Source of the DNA: a virus
Taxonomy: Duplodnaviria > Heunggongvirae > Uroviricota > Caudoviricetes
Direction: 5' to 3' (one strand)
DNA length: 12,326 bases
IMG/VR virus record: IMGVR_UViG_2693429700_000004
Position 1 is the first letter of the stretch; each line of letters begins with the position of its first letter. The notes below the pieces were generated by a model, which saw only the letters and a program-made list of their open reading frames with translations, was not told the origin of the DNA and ran no database searches. Below, piece after piece: positions 754 through 12,307 of the stretch. Position numbers and translations under genes: made by a program.

Positions 754-1173
754 TTACTCCGGTGGGGGATTATCTTTAAGCCTGCCTCTCAAATATTTTT
801 CTACATACTCATCGATTTCTTTTAGCCGGACTTCAAATAGCTCAATCATTCGTTGTTGTTCTGAGCCAGGTAGCTGGTTAAACAACTCAAGAAGTTTTCG
901 TTGGGATTCATTTAACCACAATTCAGAAGATTCCTGTTCTCCAAATAGGAGCTCAGGAGGAGATATGCCAAGTGCCTTTCCCAATACGACAGCGTCATGC
1001 ACTCCAACATTTCTGCTGCCCGCCTCATAGTTACCTATACGCGATTGCGTCCATCCGCAGATTTCAGCAAGTTTTCCTTGAGATAAACCAAGCTTCTGCC
1101 TGCGCTCTTTAAGACGCATTGCAATTTTGTCATTGAGCCTACTAGCGGCAATTTTTTCGTTTTCTTTTTCCAT
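754..1173 (-). CDS. racR: XRE/cI-type HTH prophage repressor, RacR-like
   Basis: 139-aa ORF with an HTH (LSQGKLAEICGWTQSRIGNYEAGSRNVG); AAGGA RBS 5 nt upstream of ATG. Transcribed divergently from a Cro-like gene, and synteny matches racR-ydaS-ydaT-ydaU-ydaV of Rac. Gene symbol is by synteny only. Confidence 0.75.
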   Translation of the reverse strand: MEKENEKIAASRLNDKIAMRLKERRQKLGLSQGKLAEICGWTQSRIGNYEAGSRNVGVHDAVVLGKALGISPPELLFGEQESSELWLNESQRKLLELFNQLPGSEQQRMIELFEVRLKEIDEYVEKYLRGRLKDNPPPE

Positions 1174-2797: not shown

Positions 2798-3544
2798 ATG
2801 AAAAATATTGCGACAGGCGGTGTTCTTGAACGTATCCGTAAGCTGGCTCCGCAGCATGTAACCGCGCCGTACCGGACAGTGGACGAGTGGCGAGAGTGGC
2901 AGCTTGCAGAAGGGCGAAAACGTAGCGAGGAGATCAACCGCCTGAATCGTCAGTTGCGGGTGGAAAAAATTCTGAATCGCTCAGGCATCCAGCCGTTGCA
3001 TCGTAAATGCTCGTTTGCAAATTACCAGGTGCAGAACGACGGCCAGCGATACGCGTTAAGCCAGGCGAAATCCATCGCCGATGAACTGATGACCGGGGGT
3101 ACAAATTTTGCGTTCAGCGGAAAACCTGGTACCGGGAAGAACCACTTAGCGGCAGCTATCGGAAATCGCCTGCTGAAAGATGGCCAGACAGTGATTGTGG
3201 TTACTGTGGCTGATGTTATGAGTGCCCTGCATGCCAGCTATGACGACGGACAGTCAGGCGAAAAATTTTTGCGGGAACTGTGCGAAGTGGATCTGCTGGT
3301 TCTTGATGAGATTGGCATTCAGCGCGAGACGAAAAACGAGCAGGTGGTACTGCACCAGATTATTGATCGACGGACAGCGTCGATGCGTAGCGTGGGAATG
3401 CTGACAAATCTGAACTATGAGGCCATGAAAACATTGCTCGGTGAGCGGATTATGGATCGCATGACCATGAACGGCGGACGCTGGGTGAATTTTAACTGGG
3501 AGAGCTGGCGTCCGAATGTCGTCCAGCCAGGAATTGCGAAGTAA
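2798..3544 (+). CDS. ydaV: DnaC-like replicative helicase loader (AAA+ ATPase; YdaV-like)
   Basis: 248-aa ORF with Walker [16 protein letters not shown] and Walker B-like LLVLDEIG; sits 6 nt after the initiator gene. Confidence 0.85.
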
Positions 3545-3566: not shown

Positions 3567-4328
3567 ATGGAGACTGTTTTTGACGCACTGAAAGCAATGG
3601 GAAAAGCCACATCCATAGAACTTGCTGCGCGACTTGATATCAGTCGTGAAGAGGTACTGAACGAGCTGTGGGAACTGAAAAAAGCTGGTTTTGTTGATAA
3701 AACCGCGTACACCTGGCGCGTGGCTGAAAACAACGTTCAGCAGGAACAGTCAGCGCAGGCAGAACTGCCGGAAGAAACCACCACAGCAACAGTAGCGAAA
3801 ATCTCAGAGTGCGATTTAACCGCAACGATTGAACAACGCGGACCACAAACGGCTGATGAGCTGGCTACATTGTTTGATACCACATCACGCAAAGTGTCTT
3901 CAACGCTGGCAATGGCAATCAGCAAAGGTCGTCTGATTCGCGTAAATCAGGGCGGTAAATTTCGTTACTGCATACCGGGCGATAATTTACCAGCAGAGCC
4001 GAAAGCAGCATCGGTAGCGGAAACTGATGGTAAAGCCTTTCCTCAGCCTGCATGTGTTGCGTTACCAGTACAGGAAGCTGCAACACAGGAAGATATTAAA
4101 ACAGAAACGATGGCGGACATTGTGCAGTCGCTGCCATCGTTTACTGCAACGCGATCTGATGATTTGATTTTGCCATCGCTGCATTTGGCAAACCGCGAAC
4201 TGCGTCGGGCGAAAAATCATGTCCAGAAGTGGGAGCGTGTCTGCGCCGCGCTGCGTGAGTTGAACAAGCACAGGGATATTGTACGACAGATTACTGATTC
4301 TTCCCGCCATGTTGCATCGGAAAAGTGA
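3567..4328 (+). CDS. phage protein with two winged-helix-like segments (function unknown)
   Basis: Start chosen at ATG 3567 ([13 protein letters not shown]...) with GGAGA RBS; the track's upstream start at 3516 would overlap the DnaC-like gene. wHTH-like stretches: [30 protein letters not shown] and [29 protein letters not shown]. Confidence 0.55.
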
Positions 4329-4343: not shown

Positions 4344-4736
4344 ATGGCAAAAGTATTTACACAAGAAGAGCGGGAAGAAGTGAAGGCGCGCATTGTGGAA
4401 TTCGTGCGCCTGAGCGGACGAGAAACTTTTCGACAACTGGCAGATAAAACGGGTGTCAGTAAGACCGCTATTCGTCGTTTATCTGGTGCGCTTGCGGCCA
4501 GTGGTGATGTCTGGCTCTCTGGTTGCGGGGTATTTCCATCAGAGCAGGCGTATCGCGTATGGCGTAAGACACCGGAGAAGGCTGCTGACCCGACACTGAT
4601 TCGAAAGTTACCTGACGGAGAAATACGTCGTTACAACAGACGGCAGAACATAATTTGTCGTGAGTGCCGCCAGAGCGAAGTTATGCAGCGTGTGCTGGCG
4701 TTCTATCGGGGAAACTTTCAGGAGGTGATGTTGTGA
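4344..4736 (+). CDS. hypothetical phage protein with putative HTH
   Basis: ATG at 4344 with GGAGG RBS 5 nt upstream (the track start at 4329 is TTG). HTH-like TFRQLADKTGVSKTAIRRL; C-terminal CRECRQ. Confidence 0.5.
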   Translation: MAKVFTQEEREEVKARIVEFVRLSGRETFRQLADKTGVSKTAIRRLSGALAASGDVWLSGCGVFPSEQAYRVWRKTPEKAADPTLIRKLPDGEIRRYNRRQNIICRECRQSEVMQRVLAFYRGNFQEVML

Positions 4737-5206
4737 GTGAGTCGGCTACCATTCTCGACATGTGCTGTGGCAGTCGCATGTTCTGGTTTGATAAGAATGA
4801 CGAACGGGCGATATTTAGCGATATCAGAAAAGAAGAGCACACATTGTGTGATGGACGACGCCTGATTATCAGTCCTGACCTGATAGCAGATTTTCGAGCA
4901 TTACCATTTGCAGACGCATCGTTTCCGGTTGTTGTATTCGACCCTCCGCATCTTGAGCGTGTTGGTGATAACGCCTGGATGGGAAAGAAATATGGACGGC
5001 TGAATAAAGATACCTGGCGAGATGATTTGCGGCAGGGATTTAAAGAAGCCTTTCGTGTGTTGTGCCCACGCGGCGTTCTGATTTTTAAATGGAATGAAAC
5101 GCAAATACCTGTTCGCCAGATATTGGTACTGACCGACAGAAAACCTGTTATCGGTCAACGAACAGGAAAAAACGATAAAACCCACTGGATTATTTTTATG
5201 AAATAG
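4733..5206 (+). CDS. small SAM-dependent methyltransferase, probable phage orphan DNA N6-adenine/N4-cytosine MTase
   Basis: Motif I-like ILDMCCGSR, then catalytic motif IV DPPH (VVVFDPPHL) about 65 residues later. Start is either GTG 4733 (GGAGGTGA RBS, overlaps upstream stop) or ATG 4763. About 150-158 aa with no partner restriction gene. Confidence 0.6.
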   Translation: MSESATILDMCCGSRMFWFDKNDERAIFSDIRKEEHTLCDGRRLIISPDLIADFRALPFADASFPVVVFDPPHLERVGDNAWMGKKYGRLNKDTWRDDLRQGFKEAFRVLCPRGVLIFKWNETQIPVRQILVLTDRKPVIGQRTGKNDKTHWIIFMK

Positions 5207-5454
5207 GCATCCAGTGAGTAGGTTCGTAAGGTTACAGATGCGTATATCTGAATAATTAAATTCAGTTCTGTAAATAAAATTTAATCCTTAACCGGAGGGA
5301 TTCCTGCACCCTCAGAACATCAGGAGACCGCCCGAAAGGGCGGTAATGAAAAATGGCTGAATGAACCAAATGGCTACAAAACACGATTACCGGAATTGAA
5401 ACGGTAGTAGACGATAAATCGTTTGTATGTGATGAAATAGTATTCAAAATCGAT

Positions 5455-6015: not shown

Positions 6016-7437
6016 ATGACCACTATTACCAAAGAGCGACTGCTGACAATCAAGCAGTGGCGCGAAACATACGGACCTGGTAGCAACGTTGTACTGCCAG
6101 CAGAAGAAGCGGAAGAACTGGCACGGATTGCACTGGCATCATTGGAAGCAGATCCAGTTAAACGAGTTAACTCAGATCAGATGCACCGAGTCTGCTTAGA
6201 AGCTAATCGCTATTTAGATAAATATGACGCGATGGCGAAAGAGGTAAATAAGTTGCTTGGACGCATCGCCCCGCCAGCGCCAGTATTTAACGGCGAATAC
6301 GGTGACGCATATCAGGGCGCTCGTGAAGACCTGTCCATCTGGAAACGGCGAGCGCTTGAAGCTGATGAGCACGTTCGGCGACTGGAGCAAATCAATGACC
6401 ACATGGTGAAAGAGGCGCAGGGAGAATCACGCATGGGCGAGCCTGTAATACGTGAGCCAGCACCGGTAGTGCCTGAAGAAGCAACTCCGGAAAACGTAGA
6501 AATGCTCTCTGGCTATGTTTCAACGTACAAATTAACCGATAGCGAGCGCGATATTGCTGCCGAAATATGGAACGCCTGCCGCGCCGCCATGCTTCAGTCA
6601 GGAAACTTTCGGGAAAACAAGAATTCGTCAACCAATAATTTTCGGGAAATCGAGGAAACGTCAACCAACTATCCGGCAATTCCTAGTGAGGTGTTGTCCG
6701 CAATCCTGAAGGTTGCCAGGATTCGTGCCGATTTCGATGATTTTGACGGTGACAGGCGAGGTATCGGTGATTGTCTGGATGAGGCTGAGCAAGAGCTTAT
6801 CGTTACCATTAACAAATATGCCAGTCAGTTGGCAGCAGAACCGATAGCGACTAATGACGTTCGAGAGCAGCAGACAGCCGTTCCGCCAGTTCCGGAAATA
6901 CAGGCTGATGTCGCGCAAGCAATTGAAAATCTCAAGCAGAAGCTAGTGGAATGTAATCGCTATAACTACTGCGCAGATGCAGTTAAAGGCGTAGAGGATG
7001 CCTGCCGTGCTGTTAGCTATAGCCAAGCCGACAATCAACCAGCATCTGGCAACCAGGCTGCCGAATCCAATCGCGGTAATGAGTGGACCGGCAATCCTGA
7101 TATTGATAACGCCATCATCATGCTCGACCGCATAGATACGCTGGAAAATTGCGATGATGACCGTATTGAGGCTGTTAAGGCTGTTTTGCGTAGACTGGCT
7201 GGCAACTATCCGGTAACTCCGGATGGTTGGATAAGCTGTAGTGAGCGAATGCCGAATACCAAAACAGCCGTTCTTGTTGCCGTGGAGTTTGACAGGAAAG
7301 GTGACTGGCGAATGAAATGGGCTACTTACATCCCGGGGCATCCTGACGCTAATGATGGGTGGATAATTCCTGGTGCGTCGTGGAAACCGTCACACTGGAT
7401 GCCGCTACCAGAACCGCCGCAGGAGGTGCGCCAATGA
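6016..7437 (+). CDS. 473-aa phage protein with C-terminal DUF551-type domain (Ead/Ea22-like region)
   Basis: C-terminus GWISCSERMPNTKTAVLVAVEF...WKPSHWMPLPEPP looks like the DUF551 signature as I recall it. AAGGTGA RBS. Internal imperfect tandem DNA repeat at 6604-6670 encodes NFRENKNSSTN / NFREIEETSTN. Confidence 0.65.
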   Translation: MTTITKERLLTIKQWRETYGPGSNVVLPAEEAEELARIALASLEADPVKRVNSDQMHRVCLEANRYLDKYDAMAKEVNKLLGRIAPPAPVFNGEYGDAYQGAREDLSIWKRRALEADEHVRRLEQINDHMVKEAQGESRMGEPVIREPAPVVPEEATPENVEMLSGYVSTYKLTDSERDIAAEIWNACRAAMLQSGNFRENKNSSTNNFREIEETSTNYPAIPSEVLSAILKVARIRADFDDFDGDRRGIGDCLDEAEQELIVTINKYASQLAAEPIATNDVREQQTAVPPVPEIQADVAQAIENLKQKLVECNRYNYCADAVKGVEDACRAVSYSQADNQPASGNQAAESNRGNEWTGNPDIDNAIIMLDRIDTLENCDDDRIEAVKAVLRRLAGNYPVTPDGWISCSERMPNTKTAVLVAVEFDRKGDWRMKWATYIPGHPDANDGWIIPGASWKPSHWMPLPEPPQEVRQ

Positions 7438-7656: not shown

Positions 7657-7789
7657 ATTCATTACGATATGGGAATTCCCATATCGGGTAAAAACGGTTT
7701 GCGGTAAAGCGAGAGTTAAGTAGAATTGCTGCGGGTGCTTGAGGCTATCTGCCTCGGGCATGCCACCGTAAGGCAGACAGAGAAAAGCC

Positions 7790-7890
7790 CCAGTTAACAT
7801 TACGCGTCCGGCAAGACGCTTAACATTAATCTGAGGCCATATCTATGCTCTACACACGTAGGTTAGCCTCTTACGGACCGAAAGGTCAAG
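7790..7890 (-). ncRNA. sok: predicted Sok-like antisense RNA region (coordinates approximate)
   Basis: Inferred from hok/mok architecture. Minus-strand TTGACC (complement of 7885-7890) is a possible -35; the mok leader contains hairpins and a direct repeat TTAACATTA. Boundaries are not resolved from sequence. Confidence 0.3.
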
Positions 7891-8051
7891 GAGAAGCAGG
7901 CTATGAAGCAGCAAAAGGCGATGTTAATCGCCCTGATCGTCATCTGTTTAACCGTCATAGTGACGGCACTGGTAACGAGGAAAGACCTCTGCGAGGTACG
8001 AATCCGAACCGGTCAGACGGAGGTCGCTGTCTTCGTAGACTACGAATCTGA
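7845..8051 (+). CDS. mok: Mok-like overlapping reading frame (modulation of killing) of the hok locus
   Basis: 68-aa ORF starting upstream of hok and overlapping it in another frame, the canonical hok/mok arrangement. Confidence 0.55.
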   Translation: MLYTRRLASYGPKGQGEAGYEAAKGDVNRPDRHLFNRHSDGTGNEERPLRGTNPNRSDGGRCLRRLRI

Positions 8052-8058
8052 GAAGTAA
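7903..8058 (+). CDS. hok: Hok/Gef-family type I toxin (HokD/RelF-like), 51 aa
   Basis: Translation MKQQKAMLIALIVICLTVIVTALVTRKDLCEVRIRTGQTEVAVFVDYESEK matches the Hok family as I recall it, nearly identical to HokD/RelF except the C-terminal tail. AAGGAGAAG RBS. Not in the ORF track. Confidence 0.85.
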   Translation: MKQQKAMLIALIVICLTVIVTALVTRKDLCEVRIRTGQTEVAVFVDYESEK

Positions 8059-10058: not shown

Positions 10059-10084
10059 CTCAATCTGTTATCCGGGGCTATATT
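10055..10084 (+). promoter_or_regulatory. pR'-like late promoter
   Basis: TTGACT (10055-10060), 18-bp spacer, TATATT (10079-10084); overlaps the stop codon of the Q-like gene. Confidence 0.45.
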
Positions 10085-10146
10085 CCTCACGCGCCAGCAA
10101 AATCTGGCGTCGGGATTAGGAACCCCGGATAGAGACCGCGACAGAC

Positions 10147-10170
10147 ACACGCCGCGAGCGTGTTTTTTAT
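10147..10170 (+). terminator. tR'-like intrinsic terminator about 80 nt downstream of the late promoter
   Basis: ACACGC-CGCGA-GCGTGT hairpin followed by TTTTTTATT. Confidence 0.55.
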
Positions 10171-10331
10171 TGTCGTATGCACGCGCACATCTGAATTATG
10201 GTGGGGCGTATGGGGGAGCTGAAAAGCTCGCCGGTTGGTTTCCCGGTAGTTCCTAACCCTGTACGTCTCACCACCCGATGATTAGGAACCTGACGGTGGT
10301 GATGGTTTAGAAACCACCAGAGGGCGTCATT

Positions 10332-10913
10332 ATGACAACTCAAATTTCTGTTGAAACTCTCTCCCCGATCACCCATAACCAGATTCCTGTTATTACCACC
10401 GAACTTTTGGCGCAGTTGTACGGTGCTGGAGTTAAGAACATTCAAAATAACTACGCCAGAAATGCTGAGCGCTTTATTGAAGGAAAGCATTTTTTCAAAG
10501 TGGCTGGCGATGCCCTGAAAAATTTGCGGGTAGCTTTAAACTACTCACAAAATTTGCAACCATCTTTAAGAGGGTTACAAATTTCCCCGAAAGCCCGCTC
10601 CCTCATCCTCTGGACAGAACGCGGAGCAGCCCGTCATGCCAAAATGCTGGAAACCGATCAGGCGTGGGATGTGTTCGAAAAGCTGGAAGACTGCTATTTC
10701 AGACAAAAGGATCCGTCAGCGCCAGTTTCATGCCAGAAAAGTTACGACACGCGAGTTCTCTGTTATCAGAGAGGCGGTGTCACTGTTTCCACAATTCAGT
10801 TACGGGATGATGATATTGTTATTTCCCTTGAGTCATGGCTGGAACTGGCGAGAGCCAATGGTTGGTTTGTTGTTCGCAGAGATAAACTGGTGGAAAGGTT
10901 GATGCAGCTTTAA
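10332..10913 (+). CDS. ORF6N-domain (antirepressor-like) protein
   Basis: 193-aa ORF with AGAGGG RBS; N-terminal segment TELLAQLYGAGVKNIQNNYARNAERFIEGKHFFKV resembles the ORF6N/antirepressor N-domain as I recall it. Confidence 0.55.
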   Translation: MTTQISVETLSPITHNQIPVITTELLAQLYGAGVKNIQNNYARNAERFIEGKHFFKVAGDALKNLRVALNYSQNLQPSLRGLQISPKARSLILWTERGAARHAKMLETDQAWDVFEKLEDCYFRQKDPSAPVSCQKSYDTRVLCYQRGGVTVSTIQLRDDDIVISLESWLELARANGWFVVRRDKLVERLMQL

Positions 10914-12231: not shown

Positions 12232-12307
12232 GGCCCTTTAGCTCAGTGGTGAGAGCGAGCGACTCATAATCGCCAGGTCGCTGGTTCAAATCCAGCAAGG
12301 GCCACCA
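12232..12307 (+). tRNA. tRNA with CAU anticodon, ileX/ileY-like (tRNA-Ile2, lysidine) and diverged from the host copies; tRNA-Met not formally excluded
   Basis: 76-nt cloverleaf: acceptor stem GGCCCTT/AAGGGCC, D-loop AGCTCAGTGG, anticodon loop CTCATAA, T-arm GGTTCAAATCC, encoded CCA end. Resembles E. coli ileX/ileY as I recall it, with compensatory stem changes. Confidence 0.85.

Follow-up and report, generated by a model that had tools for sequence, protein, structure and literature searches.

Among the described DNA methyltransferases of prophages, M.EcoGII is a prophage-borne orphan of 349 amino acids (aa), a non-specific adenine methyltransferase of the beta-class that is unexpressed in lysogens (PMC5778455), and enzymes of this class act as obligate dimers (PMC7544214). 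Hia5, Hin1523 and Nme1821, alpha-class adenine methyltransferases of Mu-like prophages, have minimal specificity and give broad protection from restriction (PMC3299994). In this work we analyse a gene of 157 codons in a 12,326-nucleotide (nt) stretch of tailed-phage DNA (IMG/VR record IMGVR_UViG_2693429700_000004, Caudoviricetes; "the window" below means this whole stretch), for which an original prediction, made from the letters alone, had suggested a compact orphan methyltransferase of phage DNA.

According to our analysis the encoded protein is a reduced Rossmann-type catalytic core and nothing more, that is, an amino-methyltransferase devoid of a target-recognition domain (TRD). On balance we favour the view that it is an orphan DNA amino-methyltransferase of low specificity, made on induction and probably used for protection of the phage DNA from host restriction. 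Its identity as a methyltransferase, its compactness and its orphan status are solid, and comparisons at the level of sequence lend indirect support to DNA as the likely substrate. The gene itself is of an ordinary kind, carries an annotation already and belongs to a phage family that has been catalogued; what is unusual is confined to the minimal, permuted architecture of this family, lacking a recognition domain, and to its apparent lack of characterisation.

A methyltransferase reduced to its catalytic core

The gene and the elements of its product that carry the argument are the following.

4720..4725, plus strand: Shine-Dalgarno (SD) sequence AGGAGG, 7 nt 5' of GTG 4733, read off the sequence
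4733..5206, plus strand: coding sequence of the compact methyltransferase, with GTG start, TAG stop at 5204-5206, and 157 codons
4751..4777, plus strand: motif I (ILDMCCGSR, residues 7-15), strand beta1 and the loop binding S-adenosylmethionine (SAM); D9 invariant, C12 and G13 nearly invariant; from the alignment and the model strand 7-9
4820..4828, plus strand: D30-I31-R32 at the end of beta2, D30 and R32 invariant; from the alignment and the model
4853..5188, plus strand: segment probably homologous to YhdJ, residues 41-152, aligned by hhalign to YhdJ 13-123, its N-terminal, DPPY-containing catalytic half
4874..4879, plus strand: P48-D49, motif III-like; P48 invariant, D49 in at least 90% of members
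4940..4951, plus strand: motif IV, catalytic DPPH, residues 70-73, directly after beta4 (64-69); invariant in 57 of 57 members

The open reading frame (ORF) translates as MSESATILDMCCGSR...VVVFDPPHLERVG...HWIIFMK, a basic core of 157 aa and 18.4 kDa with an isoelectric point of 9.0 (family median 8.8), and the identical protein is found in RefSeq as WP_024237025.1, labelled there 'class I SAM-dependent methyltransferase'. The start had been left ambiguous in the original prediction, between GTG 4733 and ATG 4763. We place it at GTG 4733 because of the spacing of the AGGAGG, the overlap with the TGA (4734-4736) of the upstream DUF977 gene in the form of GTGA, the conserved position (almost all of 82 related loci have, within 0-9 nt of the homologous place, an ATG or GTG that follows an SD-like sequence), the retention of beta1 with D9, and the same choice made by RefSeq/PGAP for the identical copy. 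A start at ATG 4763 would cut off strand beta1 together with the invariant D9, and an in-frame GTG at 4664 (180 aa) was also rejected, being not conserved and giving a 73-nt overlap with the upstream gene.

The ORF stands far beyond chance: it has homologous clusters in large numbers (7578 at 90% identity and, at E<=1e-3, 2024 at 50% identity), invariant positions in its alignment, and a dN/dS of 0.14-0.22 against close copies of the gene, which shows purifying selection. Truncated copies of the methyltransferase, with 148, 118 and 68 aa (the last in phage HannyBb), occur in some phages and prophages (phage records PV340562.1, our locus L002, and PP925841.1, L093; loci L042-L045), so that the gene can evidently be dispensed with and is at times in decay. 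That the copy in the window is itself a decaying, non-functional prophage remnant, as such truncated forms and the insertion sequence and pseudogene scars near the host prophage copy in NZ_CP148401.1 might suggest, is hardly credible to us, since it is full length, keeps all 12 invariant residues, and has the low dN/dS, the strong SD sequence and the conserved start already described.

Our alignment and profile of the family comprise 57 diverse members, in which twelve positions are invariant: D9, D30, R32, P48, D70, P71, P72, H73, E105, R108, K119 and P138. The features that define class I methyltransferases were all found, namely a beta-sheet core, the glycine loop of motif I, an acidic end of beta2 and a C-terminal beta6-beta7 hairpin. 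At the position of D30 class I methyltransferases carry an acidic residue for binding of the ribose of SAM, and D30 would play the same role here. DPPH follows beta4 directly and agrees with the (D/N/S)PP(Y/F/W/H) pattern by which methyltransferases of exocyclic amino groups are recognised. The order noticed in the original prediction, an N-terminal DMCCGSR (residues 9-15, nt 4757-4777) before DPPH in a compact and intact protein, was thus confirmed.

An AlphaFold2 model built with the family alignment (predicted local distance difference test, pLDDT, 94.6; predicted template modelling score, pTM, 0.89) shows a methyltransferase-type beta sheet, with helices only at residues 82-87, 95-109 and 127-131, and the protein ends after beta7. 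In the model all 157 residues are taken up by the core fold, which leaves no room for a target-recognition domain and bears out, in a stronger form, the earlier remark that very little space would be available for one. The sole recurrent insertion site lies after residue 40, in the 34-46 hairpin, and is used by 21 of the 57 members; no long variable segment is seen. Most members of the family are stand-alone proteins of 150-170 aa, and longer homologues have N-terminal extensions of mixed kind (DUF6291, helix-turn-helix (HTH), miscalled starts), with nothing consistent among them.

Substrate class and proposed function

For the question of the substrate we compared the family profile by hhalign with one representative per amino-methyltransferase class, using sequences from E. 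coli K-12 and from phage records, with the following probabilities.

YhdJ (beta-class N6-adenine DNA methyltransferase, PF01555): 91.7%, E 7.9e-7, 101 columns
SpSL1 gp16 (PF01555-like phage enzyme): 72%
RsmD (N2-methylguanosine, m2G, in rRNA): 4.6%
PrmC (protein glutamine): 1.6%
RlmL, N-terminal region (m2G in rRNA, UPF0020): 1.4%
YfiC (N6-methyladenosine, m6A, in tRNA): 1.3%
Dam of E. coli (alpha-class DNA methyltransferase): 0.4%
ST64B Sb44 (PF05869 phage Dam): 0.2%

The N-terminal 15 residues can be aligned with YhdJ in motif I only (TILDMCCGS with IVLDPFAGS), over 9 columns that are not significant alone. Taken together, these sequence comparisons indicate that the core is probably related to beta-class DNA amino-methyltransferases, with the SAM-binding motifs apparently relocated to the N-terminal side and no recognition domain. 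The protein is not of the Dam type, with which the original prediction had proposed a comparison: no kinship was recovered by the profiles, with either the E. coli or the phage Dam.

A second line of evidence comes from long variants. Many enterobacterial members have 248 aa, because a C-terminal tail of about 65-90 aa is added to the core. Eight loci (L008, L016, L030, L033, L036, L038, L039, L041) have the tail as an in-frame fusion, and in 3 (L015, L017, L056) a separate downstream ORF encodes it; no copy of it was found in the window. Its PHROG matches are phrog_16025 and the C-terminal part of phrog_111, both labelled DNA methyltransferases, and by tblastn it is found also at the C-terminus of ST64B Sb44 (L091:2302-3192) and of the Citrobacter phiNP Mtase (L092:1820-2698), enzymes in which a PF05869 phage Dam domain (18-198) comes first and the tail follows. 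Tails of the 248-aa variants and of the PF05869 enzymes share 44% identity (E 2e-16), and the genes of Sb44 and phiNP Mtase sit after replication genes, that is in the same slot as the methyltransferase gene of the window. Two unrelated cores that carry the same tail in the same slot argue for the same job, which would be modification of phage DNA.

The same data bear on an RNA substrate. In such a case the enzyme would be an amino-methyltransferase of the m2G or m6A type, similar to Trm11, TrmN, RsmD or RsmC, and would act on a universally conserved position of host rRNA or tRNA, or on phage transcripts, during lytic growth. We regard this as unlikely: RsmD, RlmL and YfiC score far below YhdJ, no THUMP or other RNA-binding domain is present, the tail of the long variants is common to PF05869 DNA methyltransferases, and the slot of the gene is held by DNA methyltransferases in related phages. 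Nor do the structural scores stand out from those for hundreds of other class I methyltransferases.

Even lower, as something very improbable, we would place a small-molecule or protein methyltransferase of the Methyltransf_11 or HemK kind that acts on a host metabolite or on a protein, for example a release factor. Methyltransf_11 matches cover the generic SAM-binding and RVL segments only, the invariant DPPH after beta4 marks enzymes that methylate planar amino or amide groups, PrmC is among the low-scoring profiles, and the apparent homology to the DNA methyltransferase YhdJ is extended.

A number of observations do speak against DNA modification by this family, and they should be listed together. 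The window protein has no match to PF01555, and in a Pfam scan of the 57 members this family appeared weakly in 16 (best E 0.0012), next to RsmD-type matches in 2 and UPF0020 in 1, all of them below the gathering threshold; the only Pfam match above the cutoff was to the generic Methyltransf_11, NCBIfam and Pfam being otherwise generic or sub-threshold. Top matches in Foldseek were generic, RNA and small-molecule methyltransferases and not DNA ones, with M.TaqI appearing only at rank 14 (E 3e-5, TM-score 0.52). Members from different phyla share 48-66% identity and have no variable element for recognition, which would fit a universally conserved RNA or protein target equally well, and a core of only 157 residues would have to suffice for the engagement of DNA. 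In the literature we found no experimental characterisation, substrate or methylated motif for any family member. Strains 95NR1 and 95JB1 carry the gene at 96.4% identity, and in a study of their methylomes, with REBASE comparison, it is not among the listed methyltransferases and no unexplained motif is present (PMC6602927). The outcome of this methylome study is equally expected from a silent prophage gene.

As for the fold, neighbours that are generic or that act on RNA and small molecules make the comparison silent on the substrate. The original prediction had counted top structural matches among non-DNA enzymes as a refutation, and formally this is what Foldseek returned, though for a bare catalytic core such a result is uninformative. 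Searches of PDB by sequence and by profile gave nothing significant beyond PH0226; the best single-sequence match there was the modification methylase of T. thermophilus (2zie), over the region from DPPH to RVL, with a non-significant E of 0.82. The predicted role in methylation of phage DNA has thus stood in part: the apparent homology to YhdJ, the weak PF01555 matches, the catalogue entries in PADLOC and PHROG described below and the common tail speak for it, and on the other side no activity or methylated motif was found for any member.

We propose the following sequence of events for the low-specificity DNA methyltransferase that we favour. By analogy with lambdoid phages, the gene would not be expressed in the lysogen, and synthesis of the enzyme would begin after induction, alongside that of the replication proteins. 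The enzyme would bind DNA, probably as a homodimer by analogy with the beta-class, and a base of the replicating phage DNA would be flipped into the DPPH pocket, where its exocyclic amino group would be methylated; adenine N6 is the likeliest target and cytosine N4 the alternative. Sequence specificity may be little or none, because a recognition domain and a hypervariable segment are both missing. Progeny DNA would thereby be shielded from many different restriction systems of the hosts. A bolder suggestion, which we put forward tentatively and consider rather doubtful, is that the family represents the smallest self-sufficient DNA amino-methyltransferase, a permuted relative of the beta-class that methylates adenine or cytosine N4 in nearly any context.

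The family is very widespread, has apparently no characterised member, and its architecture is the minimum conceivable for a nucleic-acid amino-methyltransferase, so that each outcome would be of consequence. Methylation of DNA by this protein on its own, if true, would define how small a DNA methyltransferase can be, would show how an enzyme devoid of a recognition domain engages DNA, and would help to account for the passage of temperate phages across restriction barriers. If methylation were in addition non-specific, it would amount to a universal anti-restriction coat for temperate phages across bacterial phyla, and the enzyme could be explored as a half-size alternative to M.EcoGII and Hia5 in chromatin footprinting. 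Should RNA or protein be the target instead, 'DNA methyltransferase' would be the wrong annotation for many phage genes.

Distribution, prophage setting and neighbours

DNA of the gene is present in 1008 of the 5426 complete E. coli genomes, about 1 in 5, and in 855 of those at least 80% of the gene is covered. A tblastn search recovered the family from 254 deposited phage genomes at 48-66% identity, in temperate phages of many phyla, with hosts among Streptococcus, Vibrio, Acinetobacter, Porphyromonas, Listeria, Gordonia, Lactobacillus, Enterococcus, Staphylococcus and Bacteroides. The window protein matches PHROG 954 ('DNA methyltransferase') at 4.9e-86 over residues 3-157, and in PADLOC it matches PDLC03288 MTase_II at 1e-72 over residues 6-157 and PDLC03730 oMTase at 2.1e-49, both matches being full length. 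The restriction-modification models of PADLOC presumably have a REBASE-type source. In PADLOC and PHROG, therefore, the family already has entries as a putative DNA methyltransferase.

The window corresponds to the early-right part of a lambdoid E. coli prophage of the Rac/Qin kind, and upstream of the methyltransferase it contains these genes.

754-1173, minus strand: cI-like repressor
1270-1512: cro-like gene
1509-1931: YdaT
2009-2791: O-like replication initiator
2798-3544: DnaC/YdaV-like loader
3567-4328: DUF1627 gene
4344..4736, plus strand: DUF977 or 'Ren-like exclusion protein' gene (phrog_142; Pfam DUF977 2.3e-42)

After the methyltransferase come two ORFs of unknown kind, a DUF551 protein, hok/sok and genes of the nin region. 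From this gene order, with the methyltransferase placed after the replication genes, we conclude that it is a part of the early-right operon. No gene resembling that of a restriction enzyme was seen in the window, in agreement with the earlier statement that no restriction gene is adjacent; absence of a restriction endonuclease gene nearby and location in a prophage are what is expected of an orphan phage methyltransferase. When three neighbours were scanned with PADLOC, two had no match and the DUF977 protein gave only a marginal one, to mad1 (E 0.0079).

The immediate upstream neighbour deserves attention in connection with a further explanation, according to which the protein is only the catalytic component of a bipartite DNA methyltransferase and a partner that binds DNA or activates the enzyme (the DUF977 protein, the tail module or a host factor) supplies activity and specificity. 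The GTGA stop-start overlap implies translational coupling of DUF977 and the methyltransferase, the DUF977 protein has also weak winged-helix/HTH and Trp-repressor-like Pfam matches, and the tail, of about 90 aa, is found both fused and as a separate ORF in the loci listed above. Among the top Foldseek matches are Bud23, Trm11, N6AMT1 and KMT9, methyltransferases that depend on Trm112, and the model has no helices in the N-terminal 80 residues, so that a face of the sheet is possibly exposed. A partnership of this kind nevertheless appears improbable to us. DUF977 is upstream in only 13 of the 82 related loci, all of them close enterobacterial copies, and the other upstream genes are unrelated; no conserved neighbouring partner gene was found across the 82 loci. 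It is therefore unlikely that the whole family depends on a partner gene next door, and DUF977 was rejected in this role; a local partner, or one encoded by the host, may exist. The tail module is missing from the window, and the stand-alone length of most members, in phages of many phyla, speaks for a self-contained enzyme too.

Several other elements of the window were recorded in passing. A scan for promoters and terminators around the methyltransferase gene gave nothing over shuffle expectation. Directly 3' of the gene there is a non-coding gap of 248 nt (5207-5454) with a GC-rich hairpin of 7 bp, ACCGCCC-GAAA-GGGCGGT, at about 5327-5344 (nt 5296-5352 fold with a minimum free energy of -19.6 kcal/mol, z -2.5), which is not a canonical intrinsic terminator because it has no T-run on either strand. 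The DUF551 domain stands at the end of a continuous 473-aa ORF at 6016-7437, a stretch that is annotated in the RefSeq prophage copy as a number of partial DUF551 pseudogenes. In related loci L004, L009, L019 and L022 a DUF551 gene comes directly 3' of the methyltransferase, and one homologue of the methyltransferase, P0124, is apparently fused to a DUF551-like tail.

Further downstream, a toxin-antitoxin module of the hok/sok type occupies 7733-8058, with the sok antitoxin RNA (Rfam, 105 bits) at 7733-7905 and a Hok/Gef-like ORF of 51 aa at 7903-8058, whose identical RefSeq copy is labelled Hok/Gef. A P1/P7-like C4 antisense-RNA immunity element, here in a lambdoid prophage, lies in the stretch 10078-10913 and consists of the c4 a1/b1 targets (10078-10131), an isrK-like RNA (10091-10168) and the C4 antisense RNA (10194-10278), just 3' of which lies an ORF6N-domain, antirepressor-like gene (10332-10913). 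At the end of the window, at 12232-12307, ARAGORN calls a tRNA with the CAT anticodon as tRNA-Met; in the RefSeq copy the tRNA at that position, the first of a cluster of four, is tRNA-Ile, and a holin gene follows.

Comparison with known systems

The gene cannot be equated with any of the described prophage or plasmid methyltransferases that we considered. M.EcoGII and M.EcoGI are 349-aa enzymes of the beta-class with a recognition domain, and M.EcoGIX is plasmid-borne. Gp16 of the pneumococcal phage SpSL1, an 'N6 adenine methylase' for which no adenine methylation was found, is not a member of the family either (BLASTP E 0.017).

Methyltransferases that act outside DNA are the most distant. 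Generic Methyltransf_11 or PH0226-type proteins have no DPPx catalytic motif, and the likeness to them is confined to the scaffold that binds the cofactor; HemK/PrmC has NPPY where the window protein has DPPH, with a negligible profile score. The m2G RNA methyltransferases (Trm11, TrmN/Trm14, RsmC, RsmD) show no profile similarity, as the RsmD and RlmL scores illustrate. Trm11, TrmN and Trm14 carry THUMP domains that bind RNA, and the window protein has none.

Among DNA methyltransferases, no catalytic homology to alpha-class Dam (PF02086) was seen by hhalign. PF05869 phage Dam enzymes (ST64B Sb44, phiNP Mtase) share the genome slot and, with the 248-aa variants, the tail; their catalytic domain is unrelated in sequence, and the window copy lacks the tail. 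Gamma-class enzymes similar to M.TaqI have the same order, motif I and then motif IV, but their C-terminal TRD is absent from the window protein. Hia5, Hin1523 and Nme1821 resemble the function that we propose, being phage-borne orphans that give broad protection; they differ in size (about 281 aa), in class (alpha, Dam-like), in having kept a divergent recognition region, and in DPPY as the catalytic motif.

The beta-class (PF01555; YhdJ, M.EcoGII) appears to be the nearest. Its order of motif IV, TRD and then X/I-III is not that of the window protein, where motif I (residues 7-15) precedes motif IV (70-73); its central target-recognition domain has no counterpart, its enzymes have 294-349 aa, so that 157 aa make about a half, and they carry DPPY in place of DPPH. 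What the two have in common is the (D/S)PP-aromatic motif IV after a strand of the form ...LP..S.D...., and, probably, homology to YhdJ over about 100 following residues.

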